In this document: positions 2,952 through 60,331 of the stretch, in pieces
How positions within the stretch are numbered: the stretch's first letter is position 1
Layout: every line of letters starts with the position of its first letter
Made by a program: the position numbers and the translations under genes
The notes under the pieces: generated by a model
The model's database searches: none
What the model was told of the DNA's origin: nothing
What the model saw: the letters and a program-made list of their open reading frames with translations, nothing else
Virus record (IMG/VR): IMGVR_UViG_3300047562_003246
Location: 121,238-185,237 of that record
Length of the DNA: 64,000 bases
Origin: a virus
Strand: one strand, 5' to 3'

Positions 2952-3992
2952 ATGAATGTACCCGACAGGAAGTCTCGGGTCAAGAGCGTTCTCTCGCGAT
3001 CCGTCAAAGAATTCGAAGAAATACAAAAGATAACAGGAGCTAAAAACCTACCTAAGTTCGAACTGCTGATGCAAAACAAAGCACGAATTGTCCAGCAAAC
3101 CAAAGCTGTTCTAGAAGAATCTTGGAACAATAGACTAGATGCTATATACCGAGGCGACATAGCGGACTCCCGCATGTTTCCTATCAAAGAGTTTCACGAC
3201 AGACTCAACGATGTGGAACGCTGCTGCACAGAGTACACACGTTATGGTCCTGTGTTTGCGTGCCAGCAAAGTCTCGCATGTCCCATCTGTAACAGCCACG
3301 CTGCGTACGCTTTTGCTTCTCAAAGAACAGCGATGCTTTTTGAACAACTTGGAAAAGTAGATTACGTCAAAGTTTTCGAAATCGTAATTAACTTTGGCGA
3401 TGTGTACATGAGTTTTGCTCCAGAACGATTCGACGAACTTAGCCAAGTGCGAACAGACATACGAGACTTCTTCGCTAAACGCGATAAAGCTTTTCTGCTA
3501 CAGGGTTCGAAACGAGGCTATCCAAAAACGTATCGACTACTCGATATGTTCATTCACTCTGCACCGTCAACAGTAAACACGCAAATGATCTTCCCGCATC
3601 TGCATGTTGTCGGCGTACCTGTATCCACAAGAACAACGCTAGATGATTTTGTCGACGCAGTATACGCCGCTTGCAAAAACTGGAATATTCAGGCTGGGGT
3701 AAATTTTTCACCTTCAGAAACTTTCTACGCGAAAAAAGCTTCAGGCAAAAAAACAAAAAACACCAAAGACTTTTTCAGAAAGATGCACTACTTAGCGAGG
3801 TGTATTAAACCAAGTAGTCACAACGGTAATTCGTATCTGAGCACCGTGACAAGCGTACCTAGAATCTTGCGGCAGCGAACAAGTAAATCAGGTACCACAG
3901 TGAGCGAGCAATACCGAAAAATTAAAGCTGCTGGTAACGCCAAAATAATCGCTAGGTTTGATAGCCAGGTTTCACAGTTCCGAATAGTGTAG
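2952..3992 (+). CDS. Putative HUH endonuclease, rolling-circle Rep-like
   Basis: N-terminal RLxxxxxC..C.....CPIC cluster, HUH motif FPHLHVV, downstream Tyr in HYLARCIK; same motif order as pC194/Rep_1-type Reps. Confidence 0.5.
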   Translation: MNVPDRKSRVKSVLSRSVKEFEEIQKITGAKNLPKFELLMQNKARIVQQTKAVLEESWNNRLDAIYRGDIADSRMFPIKEFHDRLNDVERCCTEYTRYGPVFACQQSLACPICNSHAAYAFASQRTAMLFEQLGKVDYVKVFEIVINFGDVYMSFAPERFDELSQVRTDIRDFFAKRDKAFLLQGSKRGYPKTYRLLDMFIHSAPSTVNTQMIFPHLHVVGVPVSTRTTLDDFVDAVYAACKNWNIQAGVNFSPSETFYAKKASGKKTKNTKDFFRKMHYLARCIKPSSHNGNSYLSTVTSVPRILRQRTSKSGTTVSEQYRKIKAAGNAKIIARFDSQVSQFRIV

Positions 3993-4002
3993 GATCCTGC
4001 GC
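3989..4002 (+). repeat. Dispersed 14-bp motif GTAGGATCCTGCGC, copy 1
   Basis: Exact match; its TAG is the stop of 2952..3992. Confidence 0.97.
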
Positions 4003-4042
4003 AGTCGCTTAGGTAACTCAAAATGCGGCAGTCCTACTACTA

Positions 4043-4477
4043 ATGGAAACAATTCCTCTAGGCGCGAAAAGTTTTTATAAAACAAATCGCGAATTTTCAA
4101 AATTTCATTGGGTTTTTTGGAACTTGTTCAGCAATCCCCATCAGGAGTATCTACCCTTGTCCACACAAACCTTCAGACACACGCACTCAAACCCACACAT
4201 CACTGCAATTATGAAAGTAATAACCTCTTGGTCCACTGTGAAACCCAACGACCGAATCATCTGCAAAGTATCCGTATTCGAACCGACTCTTATCCCTGAT
4301 CAAAAACCCGGTAGTTGCTACTACCTCCGAATCACTTCAGTAAACCAAACCGATACTGACTTCGTCTTTGATACCCAGTACGAAAACCAAAACTTCGAAC
4401 CTATTCCAGGCTTAACCAAACTACTCACCATCCCGCTTGGCGAAGATAACCGCTTCATAGTTCTTCGTAAGCCGTAA
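4043..4477 (+). CDS. Hypothetical protein
   Basis: 144-aa ORF in C-rich/G-poor segment. Confidence 0.55.
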   Translation: METIPLGAKSFYKTNREFSKFHWVFWNLFSNPHQEYLPLSTQTFRHTHSNPHITAIMKVITSWSTVKPNDRIICKVSVFEPTLIPDQKPGSCYYLRITSVNQTDTDFVFDTQYENQNFEPIPGLTKLLTIPLGEDNRFIVLRKP

Positions 4478-4508
4478 TGCTTTTAACTCTCGCACACAAA
4501 CTTGTAGC

Positions 4509-4783
4509 ATGCCAAAAGTAAACCAACCCAAATACGACATACCTACCGACCTACCAACCTACTGAATCTGCTTAAAGCAAACTGCTCTGTACACACAATC
4601 ATCCAGTACAAAAACGGACGCATCTGGCTTTACTGCCACAACCATGCCTACGATCACAACGGCGTACTCGCCGATAACTACCTGCGACAACTAATAAACC
4701 AGTTGCCTCCAGGCTCACTTGCAGGTCACGACAATAGCCCAGCACTGTTCAACCTCAGAAACAGACACGGCAAACGAATTTAG
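4509..4783 (+). pseudogene. Frameshifted small ORF across an 8-bp tandem repeat
   Basis: ATG4509 frame stops at 4562-4564; another frame is open 4508-4783 with no ATG; ACCTACCG/ACCTACCA/ACCTACTG lies at the junction. Confidence 0.4.
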
Positions 4784-4798
4784 CTCAGTAATCACTTT

Positions 4799-58621: not shown

Positions 58622-58642
58622 CTTTCCTAGAGTAGTCAGTAA

Positions 58643-59662
58643 ATGAGCAAGCCCGTTAAACGAGTCAAGAGCCCTATCAAGTGGCCGGGAGGTAAGTTTT
58701 ATCTTGCACCAAAGATCATAAGTTTTATTCCAAATGATGTGCAGTTTTTCTTTGAAGGATATTGCGGCGGCATATCTGTACTGCTAGCTAAGCTGCAATA
58801 TGGTAGCGAAGTTATCGTTGATGCCAACAAGTACATCACGAACTTCTGGACAGTACTTGCTGACAAAAAGTTATTTCAGCAGTTCTCGCGTTTAGCGGAA
58901 GCAACGCCTTTCTCAGATAGTATTTTCAAAGCGAGCCTTGAAAACTACAAATCAGCAAAGATACGAGATAAACCAGACGTGCAAGCTGCGTTAGACTTTT
59001 TCATTCTGTGCAGAATGTCACGTCAAGGCTTGATGAAGGATTATGCTACGCCTACGTCAAGACTACGCAGAGGCATTAACGAAAACGTGTCAGCATGGCT
59101 TTCCAGTGTTGACGGACTTGCGGAAGTACACAACAGACTTAAAACTGTTGAGGTACTAACAGGCAGCACGCTTGATTATCTGTTTAAGTACAGCAATAAA
59201 AACTCGCTGCATTATTTAGATCCTCCGTACATGCATGCGACTCGCGTAAGTAGGAAAGACTATCAAGCTTTCGAAATAAGTGACAGGCATCATGCAGTCT
59301 TGCTGGCAGGTCTAATGCCGTCGCATGAGCCGTTACTAACAAAGAAAGAGTTTGAAGCTTATGCTGGTAACGAGCAGTATTCTCAGTATGAGGAATTTTC
59401 TCGTAAAGATTTTCCAGGTAAGTTCATACTCAGCGGCTATAACAATCCGCTGTACGAAAAGTACACAGAAAAGTTTGAACTTCGCGTAGAAAAGATAGCA
59501 GTGCCTAATAACGCAAGCTCAGCAAAGATCAAAGAGATCAAAACAGAATGCTTGTGGATGAATTTTGGTCAAGAGATAAGTAGTGCTACACGGCAAGAAT
59601 CAGCCGAAAAGGTTATCTCCAAAAAGATCAAACGTAGGATCCTGCGCAAAGTAAAGAAGTAG
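58643..59662 (+). CDS. D12-class N6-adenine DNA methyltransferase (Dam-like; specificity unknown)
   Basis: SPIKWPGGK, FEGYCGGISV, VDAN, YLDPPY. Confidence 0.9.
   Translation: MSKPVKRVKSPIKWPGGKFYLAPKIISFIPNDVQFFFEGYCGGISVLLAKLQYGSEVIVDANKYITNFWTVLADKKLFQQFSRLAEATPFSDSIFKASLENYKSAKIRDKPDVQAALDFFILCRMSRQGLMKDYATPTSRLRRGINENVSAWLSSVDGLAEVHNRLKTVEVLTGSTLDYLFKYSNKNSLHYLDPPYMHATRVSRKDYQAFEISDRHHAVLLAGLMPSHEPLLTKKEFEAYAGNEQYSQYEEFSRKDFPGKFILSGYNNPLYEKYTEKFELRVEKIAVPNNASSAKIKEIKTECLWMNFGQEISSATRQESAEKVISKKIKRRILRKVKK
59634..59647 (+). repeat. 14-bp motif copy 10
   Basis: Exact; read as RRILR near the MTase C-terminus. Confidence 0.97.
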
Positions 59663-59713
59663 ATTTATTAAACTAAAGCTGTATAGATACCTAGTTTATT
59701 GTGAGACAGCTTT

Positions 59714-59956
59714 ATGTTTGGTGAATACTTCAATGATGGACTAGACGCTGAGTTTGGCGATTTACTAGGCTCAGCTAGGTTTTGCTGCGAGCTATGCGGG
59801 CAGTATTCAGATGACGTTGTTTCTTGTAATCGGTGCGGCTCGCTAGTCTGTGGTGATTGCTCTCAGGTTGTAACTATTAACGCGTTATATGGAGACAAAA
59901 TACAGGTTCAGGTGTGTGTTGATTGTTTATCGGAGGTAGCGGTTAAAGCTACTTAA
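59714..59956 (+). CDS. Small Cys-rich zinc-finger protein
   Basis: CELC, CNRC, CGDC, CVDC pairs. Confidence 0.65.
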   Translation: MFGEYFNDGLDAEFGDLLGSARFCCELCGQYSDDVVSCNRCGSLVCGDCSQVVTINALYGDKIQVQVCVDCLSEVAVKAT

Positions 59957-59979
59957 ATTTCTTTCTTTAAAGGTTCACA

Positions 59980-60321
59980 ATGAGTACTCTCAAAAAGTTG
60001 AAAAACGCACAGAGGCATCAAAAACTTCGAACTGGGATTATCCGGATTGAGATCGCTAAAGCGCACAATCAAGCTGCAAAACGTATTCTCGAAACCACCG
60101 CAGCGGATCTGAGCAAAGACAAGCTTGTCAAGATGATTCTTTGGTCCATGAAGAGCAGAATCAATATGTCGGAAGTGCATGTGATCGCAGAAAGTATTGT
60201 CCGCAAGATTCGAGATGACATCATGCGAAACTCACAAGTCTCCGGCAGTCAGCTCATTACTGGCTTTACCTCTGAGGCTGTACTGCATTACAGCGAGACT
60301 CAGCAAGTTCAAGTTGCGTAG
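59980..60321 (+). CDS. Hypothetical protein
   Basis: 113 aa; stop supplied by motif copy 11. Confidence 0.6.
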   Translation: MSTLKKLKNAQRHQKLRTGIIRIEIAKAHNQAAKRILETTAADLSKDKLVKMILWSMKSRINMSEVHVIAESIVRKIRDDIMRNSQVSGSQLITGFTSEAVLHYSETQQVQVA

Positions 60322-60331
60322 GATCCTGCGC
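60318..60331 (+). repeat. 14-bp motif copy 11
   Basis: Exact; TAG = stop of 59980..60321. Confidence 0.97.

Follow-up and report, generated by a model that had tools for sequence, protein, structure and literature searches.

Distribution of a near-palindromic word in a large phage genome

The 64,000-nt stretch of DNA analysed here (the window) represents the final 64 kb (G000:C1:121238-185237) of a 185,237-bp IMG/VR record of an uncultured phage, which is classed as linear and about 88% complete. Scattered within and between its genes is the 14-bp word GTAGGATCCTGCGC, which an original prediction, made from the letters of the window alone, had interpreted as a DNA-level signal for protein binding or cleavage. 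The phage was shown to encode a lambda-gpA-type large terminase (TerL), a family A DNA polymerase (window positions 17464-20604; 1046 aa) to which an N-terminal domain of the uracil-DNA-glycosylase superfamily is fused, a DnaB-like helicase with an adjacent primase, a UvsX-like recombinase, SbcCD-like proteins and a D12 adenine methyltransferase that is conserved in the clade. A 1471-aa protein combines RNA polymerase β with the N-terminal part of β' (Table 1), a further C-terminal piece of β' being encoded elsewhere in the genome. No close relative of this phage was found among GenBank phages.

An exact search of both strands identified 11 copies of GTAGGATCCTGCGC in the window, at each of the predicted positions and on the predicted strands, with gaps of 684 to 11,858 bp (0.7-11.9 kb in the original prediction). 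Across the whole record, 30 exact copies and only two copies with a single mismatch were detected, compared with ~0.0009 copies expected for the two strands together according to Markov models (orders 0 to 3). In 100 dinucleotide-preserving shuffles of the window, a mean of 0.19 matches with two or fewer mismatches was obtained, and none came near the observed 14. The even spacing of the copies, their count of 30 in the genome and the occurrence of sister words across the phage family, described below, extend what had been predicted.

The sequences flanking the copies were indeed unrelated, apart from the position directly 5' of the word, which was shown to be a pyrimidine in 29 of the 30 copies, indicating that the unit is about 15 bp in length. 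This unit, written YGTAGGATCCTGCGC, consists of a 6-bp palindromic core (GGATCC), an invariant arm (TGCGC) and a second arm that is imperfect but fixed. Positions 2 and 11 of GTAGGATCCTGC were shown to differ from its own reverse complement, and only one side of the word carries the GC extension. The word of this phage therefore lacks perfect dyad symmetry, and its imperfect arm is identical in 30 out of 30 copies. The two one-mismatch copies, GTAGGCTCCTGCGC and ATAGGATCCTGCGC (genome positions 79378-79391 and 107245-107258), each fall within a ~9-kb gap between exact copies and may be decaying or nascent sites.

Spacing and strand distribution

To characterize the arrangement of the 30 exact copies, their spacing was compared with that of randomly placed points. 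The copies were shown to lie on average 6.2 kb apart, with a coefficient of variation (CV) of 0.49 and a largest gap of 11.9 kb. A CV this low was obtained in none of 100,000 random placements of 30 points (P<1e-5), and a largest gap this small in 0.05% of trials (P=5e-4).

Ten copies are located on the plus strand and 20 on the minus strand, whereas 198 of the 211 long ORFs of the record lie on the plus strand; the predicted presence of both orientations despite one-way transcription was thus confirmed. When the minus copies were held fixed and the ten plus copies were placed at random, the combined CV was at or below the observed value in 0.06% of trials (P=6e-4). The plus copies fill the holes between the minus copies, indicating that both orientations constitute a single series and that whatever reads the word is blind to orientation at the scale of the genome. 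Accordingly, the word is not confined to one strand, as is known of nick-associated motifs, since plus copies interleave with minus copies. The word is quasi-palindromic and spaced without regard to orientation, yet its asymmetry is fixed in every copy.

Placement of the word relative to genes

The copies located in the window are presented in Table 1. ORFs were called by a longest-ORF heuristic, such that a few of the 'intragenic' calls near gene starts, for example that at 41193, may be intergenic. The predicted reading frames (RRILR, AQDPT and AGSY), the three plus copies that supply a TAG stop codon (copies 1, 5 and 11) and the two plus copies close to a stop codon (copies 8 and 10) were all recovered. 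The host genes had been named correctly in the case of the DnaB-like helicase, the UvsX/RecA-like recombinase, the RNA polymerase and the D12 methyltransferase, but no support was obtained for the assignment of copy 6 to a portal gene.

Table 1. Exact copies of the 14-bp word in the window (window positions).
Copy	Position	Strand	Gene context	Reading
1	3989-4002	+	Its TAG is the stop codon of a 346-aa ORF (2952-3992)	
2	7061-7074	-	Within ORF 6980-7990	AQDPT
3	15130-15143	+	Within DnaB-like helicase gene (14781-16376)	RRILR
4	22590-22603	-	Within UvsX/RecA-like recombinase gene (22382-24010)	AGSY
5	24563-24576	+	TAG stop of ORF 24003-24566; next ATG 14 nt on	
6	36421-36434	-	Within 631-aa ORF (34831-36726)	AQDPT
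7	41193-41206	-	Directly past AAA ATPase gene; within the N-terminal region of ORF 41010-42344, provided that the GTG start is genuine	AQDPT (if GTG start is real)
8	45228-45241	+	Intergenic, 4 nt past a stop codon, upstream of 2H-phosphoesterase gene	
9	52062-52075	-	Within RNA polymerase β-β' fusion gene (48856-53271)	LRRILQLK
10	59634-59647	+	Last codons of D12 adenine methyltransferase gene (58643-59662); ends 15 nt before the stop codon	RRILR
11	60318-60331	+	TAG stop of ORF 59980-60321	

In the genome as a whole, 20 of the 30 copies are intragenic, while the other ten are intergenic or supply or abut a stop codon, which is a marked excess when compared with the ~7% of non-coding DNA (P=3e-5). 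Twenty copies are antisense, 17 of them intragenic, and 13 of these 17 use the AQDPT frame (P=7e-4). Sense copies inside genes all read RRILR, and eight of the ten sense-strand copies were found at gene boundaries; three of these precede the following ATG by exactly 14 nt. At least 12 unrelated proteins share an identical codon string, which excludes selection at the level of the peptide; with several frames in use, the earlier claim that protein coding does not explain the copies was borne out. The placement of the copies looks to minimize coding cost.

Terminator-like hairpins with T runs were observed to precede, or to be formed by, the copies at genome positions 2113, 21797 and 74024. At genome positions 2113-2126 (L159), and at positions 15860-15890 of the related contig L157 (see below), the invariant arm CCTGCGC pairs with an upstream GCGCAGG to form a 7-bp stem that is followed by a T run, such that at both places the word forms part of a hairpin resembling an intrinsic terminator. 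The possibility that the word is a mobile 15-bp in-frame insertion was rejected, as the site in the RNA polymerase gene and that at position 16826 of the related contig L063 replace residues without an insertion or deletion; at the other sites, ortholog alignments fall in variable linkers, where insertion and replacement are not decidable.

Sister words in related phages

Relatives of the phage were reached through the terminase and the RNA polymerase. Two of them, L156 and L157 (ENA assemblies; RNA polymerase 71% in both cases), are ~68% identical to this phage in alignable DNA. L156 carries G(T/C)AGGATCCTGCGC (three copies in 21 kb) and L157 carries GA(A/G)GGATCCTGCGC (four copies in 19 kb), the core GGATCCTGCGC being kept in both. 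In L063 and L158 (RNA polymerase 63%, TerL 60%), the perfect palindrome GCGCAGATWATCTGCGC was identified, with five copies in 22 kb of the former and two copies plus a variant in 27 kb of the latter, while L064 (TerL 45%) contains six copies of CAGGCGCGCCTGCGC in 22 kb. The GCGCAG end is invariant in all five of these closer relatives. The original prediction had proposed to check whether relatives keep the motif or carry a different word, and lineage-specific sister words were what was found. Furthermore, the ENA assemblies derive from other samples and hold the core word within intact, conserved ORFs, which excludes the assembly or adapter artefact that the original prediction had considered.

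Copy 9, in the RNA polymerase gene, was shown to occupy an orthologous position in this phage, L156 and L157. The run that is identical in all three at this site, TGCGCAGGATCCT, is the second longest in the 4,449 aligned nt of the gene, in an alignment where the three phages share the same codon at only 19% of the conserved residues. The site is thus conserved at the nucleotide level where synonymous positions are otherwise scrambled, as the ortholog comparison proposed with the original prediction had been designed to reveal. At the spot of copy 8, upstream of the 2H-phosphoesterase gene, L156 also carries the word, in the opposite orientation. Other sites have turned over. The copies of L063/L158 and L064 lie mainly between genes and form clusters in part, and in L063 and L064 most of them are co-oriented with the genes.

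More distant members of the family (TerL ~35% identical) were examined as whole genomes in seven cases and as the first 200 kb in two more. Genome G008 contains GAGACGTCTCCAC at 20 loci, seven of which are perfect 16-bp palindromes, and these are evenly spaced (CV 0.39, P=1.5e-5); its units are split 13:14 between the strands, compared with 181 of 202 ORFs on one strand. In G004, AAATCCGGAATT was found 14 times, on both strands and likewise at even intervals (CV 0.44, P=0.002), and in G002, TAAGYRCTTA occurs 20 times without even spacing. All sister words have palindromic cores and follow a common plan, in which a palindromic core of 6-8 bp carries one invariant arm, while the opposite arm may be perfect, imperfect or missing.

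Several other repeats encountered among the terminase relatives were rejected as sister words. Repeated k-mers in L134 correspond to paralogous N-termini. Those of L141 form arrays with a 37-bp period (GCGTGCAACCA ... GCGAGTACCA), located at 1263-1559, 11796-12144 and 12838-13023, inside or beside the ORFs that flank the terminase. The repeats of L129 (IMG/VR 3300047585_000208; 1518-21656) are hairpins, TTGAGTAAC-GC-ATTACTCAA, in ~10 copies, positioned directly before the ribosome-binding sites of small genes and mostly co-oriented with the genes, and constitute a different, probably RNA-level, repeat.

Occurrence in other viruses and possible hosts

Exact-word scans of IMG/VR with the word of this phage and three sister words returned just single chance matches elsewhere, and the contigs that contain the L063-type palindrome were shown to be unrelated to this phage. 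A similar scan of 185,579 species genomes in GTDB revealed no enriched genome among the 120 matches listed, which are scattered singles in unrelated taxa. One metagenome-assembled genome (MAG), G001, yielded a double match and was considered as a host lead, but this was rejected, as the match represents a local duplication in a genome of 67% GC; the excess of the 11-mer core in G001 is attributable to this GC content and to the favoured codons ATC-CTG-CGC (ILR).

Search for the cognate protein and interpretation of the array

Taken together, the spacing, the placement relative to genes, the conservation at orthologous positions and the sister words establish that the word is a real DNA-level signal, selected on the DNA itself, and uphold the original prediction in this respect. 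A word that is private to its lineage and fast-evolving, with a palindromic core and orientation-blind spacing, points to a protein that is encoded by the phage, recognizes its site in double-stranded DNA and evolves together with that site. The palindromic cores, together with the perfect palindromes of G008 and L063, are most plainly read as the sites of a pseudo-symmetric binding protein, in agreement with the published view of the Cluster O repeats (see below); in this phage, the GGATCC core with its invariant TGCGC arm and fixed imperfect arm is suggestive of a pseudo-symmetric dimer or an asymmetric complex. We infer that the reader is a phage protein that binds rather than cuts. The copies are tentatively interpreted as a docking array for such a co-evolving, pseudo-symmetric protein, which would act over a limited distance from each site.

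According to this model, selection would not tolerate intervals longer than about 12 kb without a site on one strand or the other. New sites would arise by point substitution where the cost is lowest, i.e. in gaps, at stop codons and in stretches that tolerate AQDPT or RRIL. Each site would nucleate a protein of limited reach along the DNA, such that even placement covers the whole chromosome, and the bound protein may compact or protect the DNA, pass it on to the packaging motor or label the chromosome as belonging to the phage. Such a mode of action would resemble that of ParB, KorB and Noc from their parS, OB and NBS sites.

A number of observations weigh against this interpretation. Six-frame searches of the ~88%-complete record detected neither a ParB_N (PF02195) nor an HNH domain, Pfam and PHROG scans of ~190 ORFs yielded no nuclease or DNA-binding candidate for the reader, and a presence/absence profile across nine genomes revealed no gene that tracks the motif. 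The reader gene could also lie in the part of the genome that the record, at 88% completeness, lacks. By exact k-mer analysis, five of the nine relatives fetched whole or nearly whole displayed no such word, and the sites of L063 and L064 are grouped between genes instead of being evenly spaced. In addition, a plain homodimer leaves the identical imperfect arm in 30 of 30 copies unexplained.

Comparison with known systems

The closest published case is the invariant 17-bp dyad repeat TGTTCGGNNNCCGAACA of Cluster O mycobacteriophages, which is present in ~34 copies per genome, both in genes and in gaps, and for which binding by a dimeric protein has been predicted (Cresawn et al. 2015, PMC4351075). 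Both systems encompass some 30 or more invariant copies throughout the genome, within genes and between them, with no link to promoters or to the transcriptional direction, and both display a dyad symmetry that implies a dimeric DNA-binding protein. However, each Cluster O repeat is a perfect inverted repeat whose arms flank a 3-bp spacer, and the repeats become denser towards one genome end, whereas the word described here is asymmetric, recurs evenly about once per 6 kb over a genome of ~190 kb, and gives way to different words in relatives. The repeat sequence and the phage family are also unrelated.

ParB-family arrays (parS, the OB sites of RK2 KorB and Noc sites) consist of 13-16-bp palindromes in ~10 to 70 near-identical copies per replicon, which are functional in both orientations and serve as nucleation sites for a protein whose action extends over kilobases. 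These sites are symmetric, mostly located outside genes or clustered in one region, and conserved across wide taxa; conversely, the present word is private to its lineage, and ParB_N was not found in the record. The stoperators of Cluster A mycobacteriophages are asymmetric 13-bp repressor sites, of which ~25 to 30 dispersed copies are bound by one phage protein (PMC4351075), but they are co-oriented with transcription, mainly intergenic and found in temperate phages, whereas the copies of this word occur in both orientations and are mostly intragenic. A co-oriented, mainly intergenic arrangement, as expected of promoters or stoperators, was thus not observed, and the orthologous intergenic copy is flipped in L156.

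The cyanobacterial highly iterated palindrome HIP1 (GCGATCGC), with its variants, shares with this word a GATC-type palindromic core that is written through coding DNA in all frames and kept by selection. It is, however, an 8-bp property of host genomes that recurs about once per kb, as opposed to a 14-15-bp word that is private to a phage lineage and occurs once per 6 kb; HIP1 itself is present in five copies in the record, which does not represent an enrichment. Among the analogies that had originally been drawn, parS-like binding and nick-type cleavage stand, whereas Chi, uptake sequences and HIP1 are disfavoured, since no host among the matches listed and no other virus is enriched for the word.

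Alternative explanations

Site-specific nicking was considered as the main alternative, possible although rather unlikely. Here, a phage nuclease would cut one strand at each word, e.g. 5' of GCGC on the GCGCAGGATCCTAC strand. Two candidates for this enzyme are a specialized nickase and the large terminase of lambda-gpA type, which would treat the words as half-defective cosN-like sites. Single-strand breaks at ~6-kb intervals would serve to release torsion while DNA is packaged or ejected, or to initiate recombination-dependent replication. Relatives of gpA-type terminases nick quasi-symmetric cosN sites, and a TerL of this type is present in the phage, together with UvsX-like, SbcCD-like, DnaB and primase genes that would suit nick- or recombination-primed replication. 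Because the word is asymmetric in a strictly conserved manner, only one of the strands would be cut.

Motif-associated nicks are known from T5 (R/GCGCRGG), from tf/Rembedalsseter phages (WACTRTGAC) and from phiKMV-like phages (PMC3517423, PMC11780129). As in those phages, a short exact word is under selection genome-wide, mostly within genes, with an expected co-evolution with a phage enzyme, and it is shared among related phages, in that L156/L157 have the core, and L063/L158 and L064 have the GCGCAG end, which all five closer relatives possess without variation; other words are used by the more distant relatives. The reverse complement of the word starts with GCGCAGG, a 7/7 match to the GCGCRGG core of the T5 major-nick consensus (PMC3517423). 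In the T5 record, this core was recovered at the annotated nick (9748/9749) and, on the nicked strand, at 22330, 39740 and 78567, in agreement with the classical nick map. The 7-mer match may nevertheless be fortuitous, its probability by chance being estimated at ~0.002 to 0.02 after allowing for the motifs compared.

Conversely, the established nick motifs are confined to one strand, non-palindromic and unevenly spaced, whereas the present word is a near-palindrome that is distributed 10:20 between the strands at even intervals. Only 12 of the 30 copies have a purine before GCGC, and the perfect palindromes of L063/L158 and G008 would suffer cuts on both strands. Moreover, G004 possesses an analogous array yet contains a single GCGC in 194 kb, indicating that the GCGCAG end is specific to the clade of this phage. 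In a tblastn comparison, DNA polymerase was the sole detectable protein shared with T5, and no HNH domain was found in the record.

An improbable alternative is that the copies mark multiple replication starts, i.e. origin-like or single-strand-initiation signals read by the phage primase-helicase, with the even spacing serving to minimize the longest unreplicated stretch. Even spacing is the expected product of selection on the placement of origins, the phage has its own primase beside a DnaB-like helicase as well as a family A polymerase, and the dispersed palindromes of baculovirus hr regions act as origins. DnaG- and T7-type primases, however, read 3 nt and the longest known primase word is 8 nt, which places 14-15 exact bases outside the range of a primase. 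Furthermore, the orientation of the word does not switch along the genome, GC skew revealed no origin signal, and 185 kb does not need thirty origins.

A promoter, terminator or processing site for the multisubunit RNA polymerase of the phage was deemed quite improbable. Such a role would agree with the presence of eight of the ten sense copies at gene boundaries, some with terminator-like hairpins and T runs, with the mostly intergenic, co-oriented copies of L063 and L064, and with the β/β'-like subunits encoded by the phage. The excess at gene boundaries is, however, accounted for by coding cost, and the hairpin that the word could form has a stem of only 4 bp. Of the 20 antisense copies, 17 lie deep within genes, the intergenic copy is flipped in L156, and the units of G008 are divided 13:14 despite the near-unidirectional ORFs of that genome. 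The view that the word is not a promoter, which had been expressed in the original prediction, thus finds support in the antisense, intragenic position of most copies and in the orientation that flips between relatives.

It is very unlikely that the word is spread by a repair or methylation bias, in which a methyltransferase or a very-short-patch-type repair system would convert near-matches into the exact word, as has been proposed for HIP1. The cores (GGATCC, GACGTC, TCCGGA and GGCGCGCC) do resemble restriction sites, near-matches are scarce (30 exact copies versus two with one mismatch), the D12 adenine methyltransferase is conserved in the clade, and several restriction sites are avoided in these genomes. 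Such a bias would nonetheless leave the even spacing and the cross-strand filling of gaps unexplained, and fifteen specified bases far exceed the known specificity of methyltransferases or patch repair. The core of L064 contains neither GATC nor a suitable adenine, and the frequencies of GATC and GGATCC outside the word are close to expectation in the record.

Least probable of all is a signal borrowed from the host, such as a Chi-like, uptake-type or host regulator site: while both orientations would shield a linear genome from a nuclease entering at either end, and relatives with potentially different hosts carry different words, no genome was enriched among the 120 matches listed from 185,579 species genomes, the sole double match among them (G001) is a local duplication, and known Chi and uptake words comprise 5 to 12 nt.

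Additional features of the phage and its relatives

Downstream of the RNA polymerase gene, beyond a 243-aa ORF (window 53268-53999), window positions 54068-57970 were shown to harbour a gene pair encoding an rIIB-like protein (260 aa, weak match) and an rIIA-like protein (1024 aa) with a GHKL ATPase N-terminus. The latter was considered as a reader of the word and rejected, being rIIA-like and without a relative in the PDB. Two further strings, GATGATGACTCGGATGATGA and CACCACCAGTGCTTTGACTGCC-like, are repeated five to six times each in the record and probably come from repeated coding segments. Certain 6-bp palindromes are nearly missing from it (GAGCTC, one copy; CCCGGG and GGCGCC, none), compared with 30 to 100 copies of most others, a scarcity that looks like the avoidance of host restriction sites.

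Among the relatives, G004 (193,990 bp; loci L599-L608; 50% GC) contains, besides its single GCGC, zero copies of CTGCGC, and its extreme avoidance of GCGC is presumably aimed at an HhaI-type host restriction system. The RNA polymerase ortholog of L158 (10001-17242; 2413 aa) displayed a weak match to a LAGLIDADG (intein-type) domain, suggesting that this gene carries an intein. In the 202,750-bp relative L064, a TnpB/Cas12f-like gene (13474-15279; 601 aa, weak match) was observed ~1.6 kb downstream of the terminase.

Implications for large phages

Published examples of dispersed exact words in phages are few, comprising the nick motifs of T5 and tf, the Cluster O repeats and the stoperators, and a literature search on the T5 nickase and on evenly spaced phage palindromes returned nothing beyond PMC4351075, PMC3517423 and PMC11780129. 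New in the present case are the phage family, the word itself, the strand-independent selection on spacing, the core-plus-arm architecture and the replacement of the word while the array persists. The analysis provides statistical proof that selection acts on the spacing itself, whichever strand carries the word. Across four genomes of one family, the word changes fast while the array is kept, with even spacing tested for and found in three of them, and the palindromic core with one invariant arm predicts the form of the reader. If found, the reader would represent a new family of sequence-specific DNA proteins with naturally diversified specificities of 12-17 bp, and would offer a view of how large phages organize, protect or process their chromosomes.

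As a broader and more doubtful proposal, a 'private lattice' may operate across a whole family of phages of ~180-225 kb that encode an RNA polymerase, with a lineage-specific near-palindrome of 12-17 bp paired with a matching, fast-evolving reader. If this is true, a site on either strand would lie within reach of every part of the chromosome. The phage could then tell its own DNA from that of the host or of a competitor, and the sites would provide either a loading grid with a protective, compacting or packaging function or controlled nicks. Such a lattice would constitute a general, previously undescribed principle of chromosome organization in large phages.

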